From: Escherichia coli
GTDB lineage: Bacteria; Pseudomonadota; Gammaproteobacteria; Enterobacterales; Enterobacteriaceae
Direction: 5' to 3' (one strand)
DNA length: 64,000 bases
Assembly: GCF_011045215.1 (NCBI RefSeq)
Contig: NZ_CP049201.1
In this document: piece by piece, positions 35,408 through 64,000 of the stretch
Numbering within the stretch: position 1 is the first letter of the stretch
How the letters are laid out: each line of letters opens with the position of its first letter
Made by a program: the position numbers and the translations under genes
The notes under the pieces: generated by a model
Database searches by the model: none
Told to the model about the DNA's origin: nothing
Seen by the model: only the letters and a program-made list of their open reading frames with translations

Positions 35408-36799
<1,392 letters not shown>

Positions 36800-57851: not shown

Positions 57852-58871
57852 ATGAAAAGCATATTAATTGAAAAACCGAATCAACTGGCGATTGTCGAAC
57901 GTGAAATACCCACCCCGTCAGCGGGTGAAGTACGAGTAAAAGTGAAACTTGCCGGAATTTGTGGTTCAGATAGCCATATTTATCGTGGGCATAATCCTTT
58001 TGCGAAATATCCGCGCGTCATTGGACATGAATTCTTTGGCGTCATTGATGCGGTGGGTGAAGGTGTGGAAAGCGCCAGAGTCGGTGATCGTGTTGCTGTC
58101 GATCCGGTGGTCAGCTGTGGTCATTGCTATCCGTGCTCAATAGGTAAGCCGAACGTTTGTACGACACTCGCTGTATTAGGTGTGCACGCTGACGGTGGTT
58201 TCAGTGAATATGCTGTGGTTCCGGCAAAAAATGCGTGGAAAATTCCTGAAGCATTGGCCGATCAATATGCGGTAATGATCGAACCTTTTACCATTGCGGC
58301 TAACGTAACCGGTCATGGTCAACCGACTGAAAATGATACCGTTCTGGTTTATGGTGCCGGTCCAATCGGCCTGACGATCGTTCAGGTATTAAAAGGCGTC
58401 TATAACGTTAAAAATGTGATTGTTGCCGATCGCATTGATGAACGACTGGAAAAAGCGAAAGAGAGCGGGGCTGACTGGGTGATTAATAACAGCCAGACAC
58501 CGCTTGGCGAGATTTTCGCTGAAAAAGGCATAAAGCCGACATTAATTATCGATGCGGCTTGTCATCCTTCTATCCTGAAAGAGGCCGTAACGCTGGCTTC
58601 TCCAGCGGCACGTATTGTATTGATGGGCTTCTCCAGTGAACCGTCTGAAGTGATTCAGCAAGGAATTACCGGAAAAGAACTCTCTATTTTCTCTTCACGC
58701 TTAAATGCAAATAAATTCCCGGTCGTTATCGACTGGTTAAGTAAAGGGTTAATTAAACCAGAAAAATTAATTACCCATACGTTTGATTTCCAGCATGTTG
58801 CTGATGCCATTAGTTTATTTGAACAGGATCAAAAACATTGCTGCAAAGTCTTACTCACTTTTTCTGAATAA
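57852..58871 (+). CDS. rspB: RspB, Zn-dependent alcohol dehydrogenase family
   Basis: ORF 57828-58871; start taken at MKSILIEKPNQLAIVEREIPTPSAGEVRVKVKLAGICGSDSHIY... giving 339 aa. Confidence 0.95.
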   Translation: MKSILIEKPNQLAIVEREIPTPSAGEVRVKVKLAGICGSDSHIYRGHNPFAKYPRVIGHEFFGVIDAVGEGVESARVGDRVAVDPVVSCGHCYPCSIGKPNVCTTLAVLGVHADGGFSEYAVVPAKNAWKIPEALADQYAVMIEPFTIAANVTGHGQPTENDTVLVYGAGPIGLTIVQVLKGVYNVKNVIVADRIDERLEKAKESGADWVINNSQTPLGEIFAEKGIKPTLIIDAACHPSILKEAVTLASPAARIVLMGFSSEPSEVIQQGITGKELSIFSSRLNANKFPVVIDWLSKGLIKPEKLITHTFDFQHVADAISLFEQDQKHCCKVLLTFSE

Positions 58872-58928
58872 TACCAATAACGGCGAGTAAGTAGTACGCA
58901 TCTTACCTCTTTTTTAGAGATAACCATT

Positions 58929-59039
58929 ATGACAATAGAAAAACACGAAAGAAGCACTAAGGATTTGGTGAAAGCAGCGGTATCGGGATGGCTGGGCACT
59001 GCGCTTGAATTTATGGATTTCAAGAGTCATGCGTATTAA
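58929..59039 (+). pseudogene. ydfJ: N-terminal fragment of an MFS transporter gene (ydfJ-like) truncated by prophage integration
   Basis: Hand-translated 36-aa ORF MTIEKHERSTKDLVKAAVSGWLGTALEFMDFKSHAY; the first 31 residues look like a sugar/metabolite MFS N-terminus (GxLxEWxDF-like motif), then the frame terminates 5 codons later, 20 bp before the integrase stop. Confidence 0.5.
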
Positions 59040-59058
59040 CTATTTGATAAATATTAAA

Positions 59059-60354
59059 TTAATTTTTCATTGCTTCGTTATGGGGCATGGTTGGGGCAAA
59101 CTCGCTTAACTGTGTATTTAACAAAGCTACCTGTGCATTATTGTTTTCAGACATCCATTTTCCGTATACCTGAAATACCATTTGCGCATCTGCATGGCCC
59201 ATCTGGTTTGCTATAAATGCCGGGTTAGCACCAGCTGTCAGCGACCAGCAGGCATAAGTATGTCTCGACTGATATGATTTTCGATGGCGGAGTCCGGCAC
59301 GTTTTATCGCTGCGTCCCACATCTGCCTTATTGAGTCAACGGTAAAATGGTCACCATAATTTTTTACTCTCGCTGACACTTCAGGTTGAAAAACAAAGGT
59401 GCATTTTTGTTTTTCTGTTCTGCCATACTCTCTGAGGTGAACATCAATGATATGCTCTTTGCTCAGTCTCGTTAATGTCATCTGACTCCGGAGAGCGTCG
59501 ATTGCTGGCTTAATAAGATGAATGACCCGATTGGTTCCCGCCTGTGTTTTTGGTACCGTGAAACGGTCTTTTGCTAAATTTCTCCTGATCATCATTGTTC
59601 CATTTTTCAGATCTATGTCCTCCCATCCAAGTGCACACAGCTCACCAGGGCGAACGCCAGTATAAACAGAAACACACCATAAATTTTTTGCTTGCTGATT
59701 TCTGCACGCATCGATAAGACGGATAAATTCTTCCCGCGAAAGAGGATCCGGAATGGTTCTTGATTCCTTTAATGGCGAGATCCCCTTAAACGGATTATCT
59801 GCCAGGTAACCGTTATCAACACCAAACTGGAACACGGCGTTAAGATTTGTCATGTAATTATTTACAGTTACAGCCGATCTCCCTGGTTGTGTAACAATAT
59901 AGTTACTTTTGGGGGTCTGGTATCCAGTCAGTAGCTCTTTACGAACCTCCAGTAATTTTTCTTTATTAATCGATGAGGCAAGATTTTTTTCACCGATTAT
60001 GCTCAGGATATTTTTGATGACGGCACGGTATGTGTTGAGTGATGTTTTGGCGACTTCAGTTTCTTTCAGTGCCAGAAATTTTTCAGCCAGTTCTTTTATG
60101 GTTAAATCTTGTCGGGCCTCACCAAATTTTTCCAGATTGCGTGAGGAGGGAAACTGTTTTGCATAGTCGAAAACACCAGTTTTTATTGCGTAACAAACAG
60201 AGGAGCGTAGTTCACCTGCAACGCGCCTGTTTTTTGCTGTGTCAGGAACCCCCAGATTTTCCCTGACTCTTACGCCTTTATAAACAAACCAGATACGTAA
60301 TTTCCCTCCATGGTTTTCCACGCCTGTCGGATATTTCATTTCAACTTCTCTCAT
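59059..60354 (-). CDS. Phage tyrosine integrase (lambda Int family), apparently full length
   Basis: 431-aa ORF (or 426 aa from the second Met); C-terminal catalytic region with HxxR (HRKSYQSRH) and a downstream Tyr; sits at the prophage/chromosome junction. Confidence 0.85.
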   Translation of the reverse strand: MREVEMKYPTGVENHGGKLRIWFVYKGVRVRENLGVPDTAKNRRVAGELRSSVCYAIKTGVFDYAKQFPSSRNLEKFGEARQDLTIKELAEKFLALKETEVAKTSLNTYRAVIKNILSIIGEKNLASSINKEKLLEVRKELLTGYQTPKSNYIVTQPGRSAVTVNNYMTNLNAVFQFGVDNGYLADNPFKGISPLKESRTIPDPLSREEFIRLIDACRNQQAKNLWCVSVYTGVRPGELCALGWEDIDLKNGTMMIRRNLAKDRFTVPKTQAGTNRVIHLIKPAIDALRSQMTLTRLSKEHIIDVHLREYGRTEKQKCTFVFQPEVSARVKNYGDHFTVDSIRQMWDAAIKRAGLRHRKSYQSRHTYACWSLTAGANPAFIANQMGHADAQMVFQVYGKWMSENNNAQVALLNTQLSEFAPTMPHNEAMKN

Positions 60355-60373
60355 TAGTTAGTGTGGCTTTTAG

Positions 60374-60625
60374 TCAAGTAAGATGACGTCTTGGTCTCGC
60401 TGATGCCTGGCGCTCAATCCAGCGATCAATTTCTTCCAGGTTGTAAAAGCATGGACTGTTATCCCATGGCATACCGTCATGAGCGACATGCTTATATTCC
60501 CTTCCTTCCATAAACGATTTTTCCCGGGCCTTTTTTAACGTACCTTTTTTTATTCCTTTCAGCGCAATTAACTGCTCTTCGGATACCCATTTGCCGGGAG
60601 AGACAATCATGATTACTTCGCTCAT
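60374..60625 (-). CDS. Putative excisionase / small DNA-binding protein
   Basis: 83-aa ORF MSEVIMIVSPGKWVSEEQLIALKGIKKGTLKKAREKSF... directly upstream of the integrase, the usual xis position; no confident sequence match from memory. Confidence 0.5.
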   Translation of the reverse strand: MSEVIMIVSPGKWVSEEQLIALKGIKKGTLKKAREKSFMEGREYKHVAHDGMPWDNSPCFYNLEEIDRWIERQASARPRRHLT

Positions 60626-60697
60626 CGATTTCTTTATCTCTTACATCAGACGAGCGCCGGTTGCAGAATACCAGTCACAACCGGCGACAGTTGAACA

Positions 60698-63169
60698 TTA
60701 AGAATCAGCCTGACTCGGGATCAGTTTTTGCCAGATAACTGAAACGTATTTTGCCTGGTAACGGGCGTCATCAAGTGCATTATGGCGCTCACCTTCGAAT
60801 GGAATAGCCGTTCTGGGATCGAAGTCTATGGCTTTCCCCAGCTCAACGATTGTGCGTACATCGCGATCGTTGTAGTAACGCCACGGGCAGGGGATCCCCT
60901 GCCGTTCGTATGAACGGCGCAAAATCGTGTTGTCGAAGTTGGCTCCATTTCCCCAGACCTGAACAAAAAATTCACCGGAGTTTTCGTCGATAAATTCCCG
61001 CAATTGTAACAGTGCATCATCTAACGGGATTTCATCGGTCATAATGGCAGATTGCGCTTCGCGTGATTGCTTAAGCCACCATTTAATGGTGTCCCGATCA
61101 ATGACTCCGCCAGCAGTTTCCAGATCGATAGTCTTACTAAATTCCGGTCCCATATCTCCGGTTTGCGGATCGAAAAATATTGCACCTATTGAGATGATCG
61201 GGGCATCAGGATTTTTTCCCATGGTTTCAAGGTCGATCATTAGATGGTCACACGTCCTGCTGGTGGATGTGATTTCGTGATGACCGTTCACCTTAATTGA
61301 GTGATCTGCCGTCTCGCCAGTTTCATTATCGCTATTGTGATGCTGATTGCCGCCAGTGTTCTCCTTGTGTGGATGTTCAGCGCCTTCCATTTCCTCCGGA
61401 TCATCTTCCTGAACTTCAACCTGATACTCTTCATCGAATGTTTCTTGGTATGTTGCGTCGCCCATCACCGCGCCACAATCAGGGCAGTTGCCGCCGCCGG
61501 TCTGACCGCAGGCGGTGCAGACTTTTTCCACTTCCTGTTGCGCCACTGGTTCAGGCTGTTTCGTTTCTGGCTCGTTTTGTAACGCATTTGGGCTGTTTTG
61601 TTCCGCTTTTTGGTAGTTCCGTTCCGATTCATGCTGGTTCTGGTTCACAGAATCGCGGGTCTGGATCCCCTTAACCCATTTCGGATCATTCGGGTCACTA
61701 ATCCCTTCAACAAATTCACCACGTGATGCAGCAAGCAACTTATCGGCGTCAGGCTGGCTGATATTGGCTGCCTGCATAATTTTGTTTACTTCGTCAGCGG
61801 TAACTTTTATCGGCTCTGGTTGTTCTGAATCTTCAGCGGTATCTACATTTTGCGGTAAGCCCGTGTATGTGCCATTTTTTCGGGCAAAATATTCTTCTTT
61901 TGTGATTTCAGTGGCGCCAGCAGCCAGTGCCTTATCCAGACCAGAAAGTTTGTTTGCGCGACCGTATTTTTCTCCGTCCTTATCTGCGAAGAGGAAATAG
62001 AACGGCCCCTCACGCTCTACAGATGGTTCAGCTTCCGGCGCGGTTTCATTTTTTGGGATATCAGATACCTCAGTTTCCACTGCATCAGTTTGTGTTTCTG
62101 ATGACTGGAGAACATCAACAGTGCCCAGGTCTGTTTCTTCATTCTCAAACACGCCCTTTGTCGTCAGGTATTCGCAGATATATTTGTTCAGTGCTACGGG
62201 ATCTTTGTGAATGTCGATCGGACGCTCACGGACAAGGCCAAAAATAGTTTGGCGGTCGTAGCGAAGGGCATCAGGCTGTTTGCGCATTGATGCCGAGATA
62301 CGCTTCCAGTCTTCGCGGTCGTTGTCGATAACTTCTTTTTTTGCCCAGCGATGGATGCTGCCGTCAATGTTTCCGGCATCCACATCACCAGGCCAGAGAG
62401 CGTAGGCCAGTTCGTCATCCAGTGTTTTCCATGTCTGCTTGTATTCGCGATGAATGGCAGCAATGACCGGGCTGATTTTTCCTGTTGAATTTTCAGTGTA
62501 CTGTTGATTGGCTCTGGCGCGGGCGAGATCAACAACAGACGTGTATTTTCCGGTTTCCTTGCGTTCACCTTCGCGACGTTTTTTCCAGATGCGCATCTCT
62601 GTCTGAATTTCGGGCCATTTAGCACCAGGAATACATTTATGCTTAACCCACCCAATGGCGTGCAACTTAAGCTCCGGATACATGGCGTTAACTTCTGGCA
62701 TTTTCATCAACGCTTCAACGATATGTCCGTCGAATGTTGCCATGTCTTCCTGCAACAATTCCTGTGTGCTAATAACCATATCAACGGTGATGTTTTCACA
62801 TGTGTCGAACTTAACCATGACAGCGTTCTGTACTTCAGGGGCCAGCTTGTCAAAAGTGACGTTCATCGGATCGGATTCAGTCTCAACCGGGACAAAAGAA
62901 GCAGACTCCTCATCCCAGCGGTTTTCCTGCATATATTCAGCATCCCATGAATCGAGGGCAGGGCGGGGTATGCCAGGTTTATCCTCGCAGATAATAAATT
63001 TATAAGCGCAGTCCTGAGCAGCCGGATAATGTTCCAGGAACTGCCAGTGAAATTTTGCTCGAGCACGGCGTTCGTCGCCAGCTTCAATGGCTGTGGCTAC
63101 AGCCACCGCGCCTTCTCCCCTTGTTGCCAGTTCGTCAGGAATAGCGGCGCAAATAAAGACTTTACTCAT
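60698..63169 (-). CDS. YdfE-like large prophage nuclease: RecE-like segment, Cys4 zinc ribbon, acidic linker and C-terminal DnaQ-like DEDDh 3'-5' exonuclease domain
   Basis: 823-aa ORF; the segment DADKLLAASRGEFVEGISDPNDPKWVKGIQTRD resembles one I associate with RecE; CTACGQTGGGNCPDCG zinc ribbon; C-terminus has DEDDh-type motifs (MIDLETMG ... VWGNGANFDNTIL ... HNALDDARY). Confidence 0.7.
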   Translation of the reverse strand: MSKVFICAAIPDELATRGEGAVAVATAIEAGDERRARAKFHWQFLEHYPAAQDCAYKFIICEDKPGIPRPALDSWDAEYMQENRWDEESASFVPVETESDPMNVTFDKLAPEVQNAVMVKFDTCENITVDMVISTQELLQEDMATFDGHIVEALMKMPEVNAMYPELKLHAIGWVKHKCIPGAKWPEIQTEMRIWKKRREGERKETGKYTSVVDLARARANQQYTENSTGKISPVIAAIHREYKQTWKTLDDELAYALWPGDVDAGNIDGSIHRWAKKEVIDNDREDWKRISASMRKQPDALRYDRQTIFGLVRERPIDIHKDPVALNKYICEYLTTKGVFENEETDLGTVDVLQSSETQTDAVETEVSDIPKNETAPEAEPSVEREGPFYFLFADKDGEKYGRANKLSGLDKALAAGATEITKEEYFARKNGTYTGLPQNVDTAEDSEQPEPIKVTADEVNKIMQAANISQPDADKLLAASRGEFVEGISDPNDPKWVKGIQTRDSVNQNQHESERNYQKAEQNSPNALQNEPETKQPEPVAQQEVEKVCTACGQTGGGNCPDCGAVMGDATYQETFDEEYQVEVQEDDPEEMEGAEHPHKENTGGNQHHNSDNETGETADHSIKVNGHHEITSTSRTCDHLMIDLETMGKNPDAPIISIGAIFFDPQTGDMGPEFSKTIDLETAGGVIDRDTIKWWLKQSREAQSAIMTDEIPLDDALLQLREFIDENSGEFFVQVWGNGANFDNTILRRSYERQGIPCPWRYYNDRDVRTIVELGKAIDFDPRTAIPFEGERHNALDDARYQAKYVSVIWQKLIPSQADS

Positions 63170-63262
63170 TTTGTTTGAACCTCATGACAGATTTAAGGAT
63201 GAACAAATCCCTGCCATTGCTGGCATATAAGAATGAAACCGGATATTTATTACGGAACTGTT

Positions 63263-63454
63263 TTAAAGACCTGCCGGGATTTCGATATTATCCTGGTGAA
63301 TAACTTTATCGACCGGGTAACAGTTACCGGGAATTTTCTGTTCGGTTGCTGCAGTCATACACTCCTGCATTGTCCTGTGAACACTGACTGCAATATCAAC
63401 TGGCTCTCCGGAAACAAGAAAAACTGTCAGAACAAGCGCAAATGCTGAATTCAT
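63263..63454 (-). CDS. ydfD: YdfD, small prophage lysis-associated protein
   Basis: ORF 63263-63508; start taken at MNSAFALVLTVFLVSGEPVDIAVSVHRTMQECMTAATEQKIPGNCYPVDKVIHQDNIEIPAGL (63 aa); 4-nt overlap with the dicB stop. Confidence 0.7.
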   Translation of the reverse strand: MNSAFALVLTVFLVSGEPVDIAVSVHRTMQECMTAATEQKIPGNCYPVDKVIHQDNIEIPAGL

Positions 63455-63639
63455 TGTGCACATCCTTTTGGCATCAGACGTAAACGAGCCAGCATTGAAA
63501 CAATGCATATTTTATTTAATAGCTCCCGTTCTTGTTTTCTCTTGTTAATGGCATCTTCAGTAAATACAGGGTTACTGATAGTGACACCAATTTCAAAACA
63601 ACCTTCAGACGTATTAACGTTTGGTAATAACGTTTTCAT
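63451..63639 (-). CDS. dicB: DicB, prophage-encoded cell-division inhibitor (acts with MinC)
   Basis: ORF 63451-63744; start taken at MKTLLPNVNTSEGCFEIGVTISNPVFTEDAINKRKQERELLNKICIVSMLARLRLMPKGCAQ (62 aa), matching DicB as I recall it. Confidence 0.85.
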   Translation of the reverse strand: MKTLLPNVNTSEGCFEIGVTISNPVFTEDAINKRKQERELLNKICIVSMLARLRLMPKGCAQ

Positions 63640-63808
63640 TATCGCGTCCTCAACAATGAATTTTGTGATGCAGTGCCTGGTGCCTCCAGGTGACGTTAAC
63701 CAGTTAACAATTAACGCCGGATACAGAGAATCCACCCATAACACTGTTTTTGGTTTTAACTGTTCCGCGTGCGCTTAGCCGCATTCACCGCATCACAAAA
63801 TTCACTTT

Positions 63809-63866
63809 AAAAACGGCGGCAGAGCAGTCACGGAGTAAAACTGATACCGCCAAACGTCACCAGAAA
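63809..63866 (-). ncRNA. dicF: DicF small regulatory RNA (represses ftsZ and other targets) with its intrinsic terminator
   Basis: Minus strand reads TTTCTGGTGACGTTTGGCGGTATCAGTTTTACTCCGTGACTGCTCTGCCGCCGTTTTT, which matches the DicF sequence I recall, including the GC stem and U-run; lies directly upstream of dicB. Confidence 0.85.
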
Positions 63867-63964
63867 ATTGATAACAGAGGGCGTTGCAGCGGGGTTGTCA
63901 CTTAAGCGTATGGTCAACCTGACAACTCGGTGTCCTCAACGGGGAAGGAATAACCCCGCCATAC

Positions 63965-64000
63965 TTACCGCCGCGCCATTTCGCGGATTGCCACAACCGG
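63965..64000 (-). CDS. 3' end of a prophage ORF upstream of dicF (ydfC-like?), partial at window edge
   Basis: Minus-strand frame reads ...PVVAIREMARR then stop at 63965-63967; only 11 codons are in the window, so identity is unsupported. Confidence 0.25.
   Translation of the reverse strand, partial: PVVAIREMARR

Follow-up and report, generated by a model that had tools for sequence, protein, structure and literature searches.

The junction between rspB and int in an Escherichia coli genome as the very probable attL of a Qin/mEp460-type prophage within ydfJ

Introduction

The 5' end of ydfJ is the site-specific integration target of the Qin prophage, which removes the promoter and 28 N-terminal codons of the gene and is present at this position in 48% of 638 strains (PMC6379469). 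ydfJ has also been recognized as the Qin insertion site in the E. coli strains W, K-12, B and Crooks (PMC3032704), and a 46.8-kb lambda-like prophage of strain SE11 was described as lying 'between ydfJ and rspB' (PMC2608844). One relative of this group, mEp460_ev081, is a functional temperate phage that carries dicB, dicF, dicAC and rem (PMC10448788).

Here, we describe the corresponding junction in a 64-kb stretch of E. coli DNA, referred to as the window throughout. In K-12, ydfJ is a split pseudogene (b4600) and intQ lies beside rspB. The K-12 Qin/ydfJ junction is 99.5% identical to window positions 58700-59300. The two loci also agree in their att core, in the host genes rspA, rspB and ydfJ' on the flank, and in the order of int, exonuclease, ydfD/dicB and DicF. 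K-12 intQ lacks its N-terminus and adjoins an IS2 fragment, the K-12 exonuclease is shortened and an excisionase is missing from the annotation, whereas the window has intact genes for Int (431 aa), Xis and the exonuclease (823 aa).

Results

The spacer between rspB and int

Positions 58872-59058 are the exact spacer between rspB, which ends at 58871, and the integrase gene, whose minus-strand stop codon is at 59059-59061. The following features are located in this region and at its borders:

57852 to 58871, plus strand: rspB, gene for a Zn-dependent oxidoreductase, the host gene 5' of the junction (NCBIfam PRK10083 equivalog, 692.9 bits; RefSeq annotation of matching loci)
58929 to 59021, plus strand: ydfJ', the host-derived part of the open reading frame, with the first 31 codons of an MFS transporter gene (all 93 nt agree with the intact ydfJ of strain 1916D18)
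58929 to 59039, plus strand: chimeric open reading frame of 36 codons, with 31 YdfJ codons, 5 phage-derived codons and a stop (list of open reading frames and alignment to ydfJ)
59011 to 59021, no strand assigned: att common core TTATGGATTTC, 11 bp, identical in attL, attR, attB and attP (four-way alignment and ungapped table)
59022 to 59100, no strand assigned: phage P' arm of attL, the first phage bases, overlapping the 3' end of int (collinear with free phages from 59006)

The 36-codon open reading frame translates to MTIEKHERSTKDLVKAAVSGWLGTALEFMDFKSHAY. A sequence-only reading of this DNA had noticed that its first 31 residues resemble the N-terminus of an MFS transporter, and that the frame then diverges and stops five codons later, 20 bp before the stop of the integrase. 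These observations hold. Over residues 1-31 the product is the same as YdfJ from strain 1916D18 (WP_000151243.1, 456 aa, 'MHS family MFS transporter YdfJ'); the residues KSHAY and a stop codon ending at 59039 follow, and the distance to the integrase stop measures 19 nt. That reading had also proposed an alignment to an E. coli genome free of the prophage. Strain 1916D18 provides such an empty site with an intact ydfJ, and when aligned from the ATG the two sequences agree in all 93 nucleotides and lose their similarity after 59021. In a BLAST comparison the match of intact ydfJ to the window runs to 59024 with one mismatch (96 nt, E = 1e-43), far more than chance would produce. The rest of the gene was found nowhere else in the 64-kb window, so that of full-length YdfJ (about 456 aa with 12 membrane helices) the window holds a gene fragment of codons 1-31. 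Judged from these alignments, host DNA extends to 59021 and phage DNA begins at 59022. The 36-codon open reading frame is a by-product of integration, and in an annotation it should be marked as what remains of the 5' end of ydfJ, a pseudogene that a prophage has split, with the left prophage boundary placed at 59011-59021.

The att core in four contexts

The core TTATGGATTTC occurs once in the window, where 0.07 occurrences are expected. It is present in attL and attR of K-12, in attL and attR of the O27:H7 strain B4103-1, in attP of mEp460 and in attB of 1916D18. With the flanking arms, the four forms read as follows:

attL (window, K-12, B4103-1): left arm ...gcgcttgaat, core TTATGGATTTC, right arm aagagtcatgcg...
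attB: left arm ...gcgcttgaat, core TTATGGATTTC, right arm cagttatattcg...
attR (K-12, B4103-1): left arm ...cacctgtgaa, core TTATGGATTTC, right arm cagttatattcg...
attP (mEp460): left arm ...cacctgtgaa, core TTATGGATTTC, right arm aagagtcatacg...

The window thus equals attB of 1916D18 up to 59021 and equals attP of the free phages from 59006/59011 onward. At the far prophage end of K-12 and B4103-1 a second TTATGGATTTC is followed by ydfJ from codon 32 onward (CAGTTATATTCGC). The free phages HannyBb, Tritos, mEp460_ev081 and PhiR42_1 carry an attP that consists of the left arm of the K-12/B4103-1 attR, TTATGGATTTC and the right arm of the window attL; it is the exact recombination partner that yields the attL of the window. 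Their P arm 5' of the core, DNA from the pin side that reads ...AACACCTGTGAA, takes the place that host ydfJ' has in the window. This DNA contains neither ydfJ nor rspB and is the same as that preceding the 3' part of ydfJ at K-12 Qin and at the far end of B4103-1. In the aligned sequences, the four att forms show the complete reciprocal pattern of an integrative site-specific recombination.

The collinearity of the window with the free phage genomes begins at 59006 and reaches about 62200. Across these 3.2 kb the identity is 99.6% for HannyBb and 99.4% for Tritos; for mEp460_ev081 it is 94.6%, with a higher value of 99.1% in the first 1.7 kb. The free phage genome of PhiR42_1 likewise matches. 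Over the 1.7 kb of att-int-xis-exo the four phages are 99.1-99.6% identical to the window.

We conclude that 58872-59058 is almost certainly an attL (B-O-P') at which a lambdoid prophage of the Qin/mEp460 type begins on its int side, formed by Int-mediated recombination of attP with attB inside ydfJ codons 28-31; no observation contradicts this. The four-way comparison agrees with the sequence-only reading, which had proposed a lambdoid prophage in the 5' end of ydfJ that leaves an N-terminal fragment behind. Both of its expectations for the other prophage end are borne out by the relatives K-12 and B4103-1, where the remainder of the MFS gene follows a second copy of the core. Its placement of the core near 59015-59040 was right for 59015-59021, which belong to the true core at 59011-59021, and wrong for 59022-59040, which are phage P' arm. 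A second core copy is absent from the window; the matching repeat lies outside, since the prophage continues beyond the right end, and for the same reason the attR of this strain is deduced from its relatives. The core string did not turn up in the searchable literature, where unrelated papers were the sole matches.

Candidate sites for Int and IHF

Several short motifs around the core may serve in the assembly of the recombination complex:

59004 to 59024, no strand assigned: perfect inverted repeat CTTGAA (59004-59009) and TTCAAG (59019-59024), centre at 59014, candidate core-type Int half-sites read from the sequence
59037 to 59049, minus strand: exact IHF consensus WATCAANNNNTTR (TATCAAATAGTTA), candidate H' site, 16 bp from the core
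59081 to 59098, plus strand: two TGGGGCA motifs, 11 bp apart (59081-59087 and 59092-59098), candidate arm-type Int sites (motif match)

The position of the inverted repeat suggests a 7-bp overlap, TTATGGA at 59011-59017, which would lie wholly inside the core and start at its left edge. The same repeat forms a hairpin in the computed RNA fold of the int 3' region. Exact matches to the IHF consensus occur seven times in the 64 kb, the one at 59037-59049 included, and in a diverged O157 relative the consensus is retained despite a change at one of its N positions. A pair similar to the TGGGGCA motifs is found in the P arm (TGGGGCATATATGGGACA) and is invariant across relatives in which the flanks vary, which is evidence at the level of the motif. 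For the pair at 59081-59098 conservation is confounded, because it sits within the int coding sequence. Strand exchange would then take place across TTATGGA (59011-59017) between core sites of the CTTGAA type, and assembly would be aided by IHF at 59037-59049 and by the arm-type TGGGGCA pairs, as in lambda. The candidate sites seem to fit the lambda model, in which an Int with an arm-binding domain uses arm-type sites and IHF bending.

The attP of Tritos differs at one core position. A G to C change, aligned to window position 59016 and hence inside the proposed overlap, makes this core read TTATGCATTTC. At attL or attR the Tritos base is present in no complete E. coli genome, and the best full-length matches have exactly one mismatch. 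With the base missing from all complete E. coli attL and attR sites, the variant was uninformative for placing the crossover within the core. The change may be a private mutation or an error, or it may be evidence against the proposed overlap; if real, it would not fit an efficient recombination with the attB in ydfJ.

Within the 3' end of int we observed a stretch that resembles the core region. At 59129-59149, ACCTGTGCATTATTGTTTTCA agrees in 18 of 21 positions with the phage attP core region ACCTGTGAATTATGGATTTCA located 127 bp away. It encodes the C-terminal tail SENNNAQVA of Int and is kept with two changes in the O157 relative. This resemblance could be due to chance, an old duplication or a pseudo-core.

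Integrase and early-left genes

The visible part of the prophage comprises its first 5 kb, with these features:

59059 to 60354, minus strand: tyrosine integrase, open reading frame of 431 aa (RefSeq start at 60339, 426 aa) (Pfam domains; phage homology)
60374 to 60625, minus strand: excisionase, 83 aa (Pfam DUF1233 'putative excisionase', 1.9e-31; phage and RefSeq annotations also call it an excisionase)
60698 to 63169, minus strand: gene of the early-left operon for a RecE/exonuclease VIII-like protein, 823 aa (NCBIfam PRK09709, exodeoxyribonuclease VIII, 3.8e-84, partial and below cut-off)
63814 to 63865, minus strand: small RNA DicF, part of the dicBF module of the prophage (Rfam RF00039, scoring 72.5 bits where the gathering score is 48)

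The integrase contains the Pfam domains Arm-DNA-bind_2 (PF12167, 3.7e-23) and Phage_integrase (8.7e-18) as well as weak SAM-like matches, and its R...RHT...H...Y motifs (RHT, GH, Y) align to the catalytic domain of Tn1549 Int. Judged by these matches it is an intact tyrosine integrase of the heterobivalent type, with arm-binding, SAM-like and catalytic domains. It shares 429 of 431 residues (99.5%) with the Int of phage HannyBb. Around residues 359-366 the first histidine of the HxxR box aligns to a tyrosine (SYQSRHT, compared with PHAMRHT in Tn1549 Int). An Int with this tyrosine is presumably functional, since the Int of the isolated phage HannyBb has the same residue.

Among the NCBIfam families Xis found no match. 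The similarity of the 823-aa exonuclease to the exodeoxyribonuclease VIII model is confined to residues 246-625 and reaches 283 bits against a cut-off of 1269; RefSeq names its relatives variably as exonuclease, 3'-5' exonuclease or 3'-5' exoribonuclease domain protein. The gene order int-(xis)-exo-ydfD/dicB-DicF of Qin/mEp460-like prophages is found in the window. The stretch from int through xis and exo to DicF makes up the early-left arm of a lambdoid phage like Qin. The prophage has the dicBF module for inhibition of cell division, which is also present in K-12 Qin.

Occurrence in E. coli genomes

We compared window positions 58700-59300 by megablast with 5426 complete E. coli genomes and counted a genome as having the attL type when at least 80% of the query was covered. 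In 2671 of the 5426 (49%) the whole query was matched, with rspB, the short open reading frame and the integrase. In most of the others the match ends at query position 322-325 (window 59021-59024), and the gene at this place is full-length ydfJ. The attR type was present in 2658 genomes (601-nt probe), while a short probe for the junction, which allows for differing distal arms, found 3154. Our attL and attR counts agree with the frequency published for Qin at ydfJ (PMC6379469). Empty sites, occupied sites and free attP thus all exist in nature, as judged from the matches to genome and phage sequences. The insertion being already documented and occupied in about half of the E. coli genomes, the site is an ordinary one. 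The closest complete genome is 99.2% identical to the window over 24.5 kb, and over 58000-64000 the closest is B4103-1 with 99.7%.

An unusual arrangement was seen in E. coli O157:H7 Z570 (about 2340-2660 of the locus), where a chromosomal, attP-like junction consists of a DinI-like gene, the P arm, TTATGGATTTC, the P' arm and an integrase gene. This integrase lacks its N-terminus and is about 90% identical at its 3' end, and IS elements are located nearby. The arrangement points to prophages of this att family that lie in tandem or have recombined.

Transcription around the junction

Between the convergent genes rspB and int, a scan of 58600-59400 on both strands detected no terminator-like site, and the promoter scan of the same interval gave a single weak promoter-like match. 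The RNA folds were no better than those of shuffled sequences, with z = -0.3 for the rspB-ydfJ spacer and z = -1.2 for the int 3' region. A sib-like or terminator element near the junction is therefore unsupported by the scan and the folds.

Discussion

The data point to a junction at which an 11-bp sequence common to attP and ydfJ codons 28-31 was used for integration. Recombination at the core brings int beside rspB-ydfJ' and shifts ydfJ codons 32-456 to the other end of the prophage. Upon this split the 31 promoter-proximal codons stay next to rspB and run into five phage codons and a stop, and the remaining 425 codons are moved to the far prophage end. The transporter is therefore left without its promoter and without half of its first predicted membrane helix. 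A replacement N-terminus is not supplied by the phage, because the codons at attR in the relatives are TGA ATT ATG GAT TTC, with the TGA two codons 5' of Met29. Occupancy of the site disconnects the transporter gene ydfJ and the downstream ydfI from rspAB.

Whether the element behind this junction is still an active prophage is a separate question. It might be a decayed, immobile ('grounded') remnant like K-12 Qin, with the att site as a fossil, and we regard the chances of this as evenly balanced. The closely related B4103-1 element spans just 15.5 kb between its two cores, contains many pseudogenes, lacks head and tail genes and is followed by a deletion beyond attR; moreover, elements at the ydfJ site range from 11 to 97 kb and are frequently decayed (PMC6379469). 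Against this, int and xis are full length here, whereas the K-12 int is truncated by IS2, Int is nearly identical to that of an isolated phage, and the visible 5 kb are collinear with free phages. Either way, the remnant explanation bears on the state of the prophage and leaves the nature of the junction as attL untouched.

The deletion in B4103-1 deserves a description of its own. At its far end (36527-36620) 41 nt of ydfJ follow the attR core, and then the 3' part of ydfI begins; the remainder of ydfI is annotated as a truncated gene of the mannitol dehydrogenase family. As read from this arrangement, a secondary deletion has taken most of ydfJ together with the 5' part of ydfI.

It is tempting to see in the junction a reversible switch, or a junction with regulatory consequences. 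With int and xis intact, excision would restore an intact ydfJ and its link to rspAB. Read-through from rspAB, a starvation-sensing operon, would run antisense into int where no terminator-like structure intervenes, and rspAB expression could therefore modulate Int levels and excision. The operon is presumably linked to sugar-acid catabolism; a literature search for rspA, rspB and gulonate returned nothing. In at least one close relative, B4103-1, the remainder of ydfJ is deleted, and a switch would thereby be ruled out in that genome. Overall we consider such a role improbable.

That the 36-aa open reading frame is a true gene for a small protein, independent of ydfJ, is less probable still. 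Its start codon and upstream region are those of native ydfJ, it lies just 3' of rspB, and with no terminator-like structure in between it may be transcribed and translated. However, its first 31 codons are those of ydfJ and the last five come from the phage arm, it has no NCBIfam match and RefSeq leaves it unannotated in matching genomes. We have rejected the independent gene, as its sequence is fully explained as a by-product of recombination. A juxtaposition by illegitimate recombination or deletion has next to no likelihood: nothing specific speaks for it beyond the fact that deletions do occur at the locus, as at the far end of B4103-1, and it is effectively refuted by the four-way comparison, in which attL, attR, attP of four free phages and the empty attB share the 11-bp core at the same position, with the same breakpoint in about 2700 genomes.

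Integration by Int can be compared with that of lambda. As in lambda, a short common core is combined with int and xis beside attP, with an Int that has a separate arm-binding domain, and with arms that contain repeated motifs and an IHF consensus, here as candidate sites. There are distinct differences as well. The core of the window is 11 bp long and unrelated in sequence to that of lambda, which has 15 bp. Unlike lambda Int, the window Int has an arm domain of the Arm-DNA-bind_2 family, and its excisionase is of the DUF1233 type; lambda Int chains were absent among the solved-structure sequence matches to the window Int. Lambda uses the intergenic site between gal and bio, whereas the target in ydfJ is coding sequence that is inactivated by the insertion. 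Site-specific integration inside a host open reading frame is likewise known for Rac (in ttcA) and e14 (in icd) of K-12 (PMC6379469). While e14 duplicates the 3' end of icd so that the gene stays intact, and Rac replaces the N-terminus of TtcA, nothing is restored at ydfJ. The base-level anatomy given here defines a core of 11 bp and proposes an overlap of 7 bp, an IHF site that matches the consensus, and arm-type sites; it is a small refinement and no discovery. The junction is a textbook prophage attL at a well-documented and very common integration site of E. coli, and as such it is already known.
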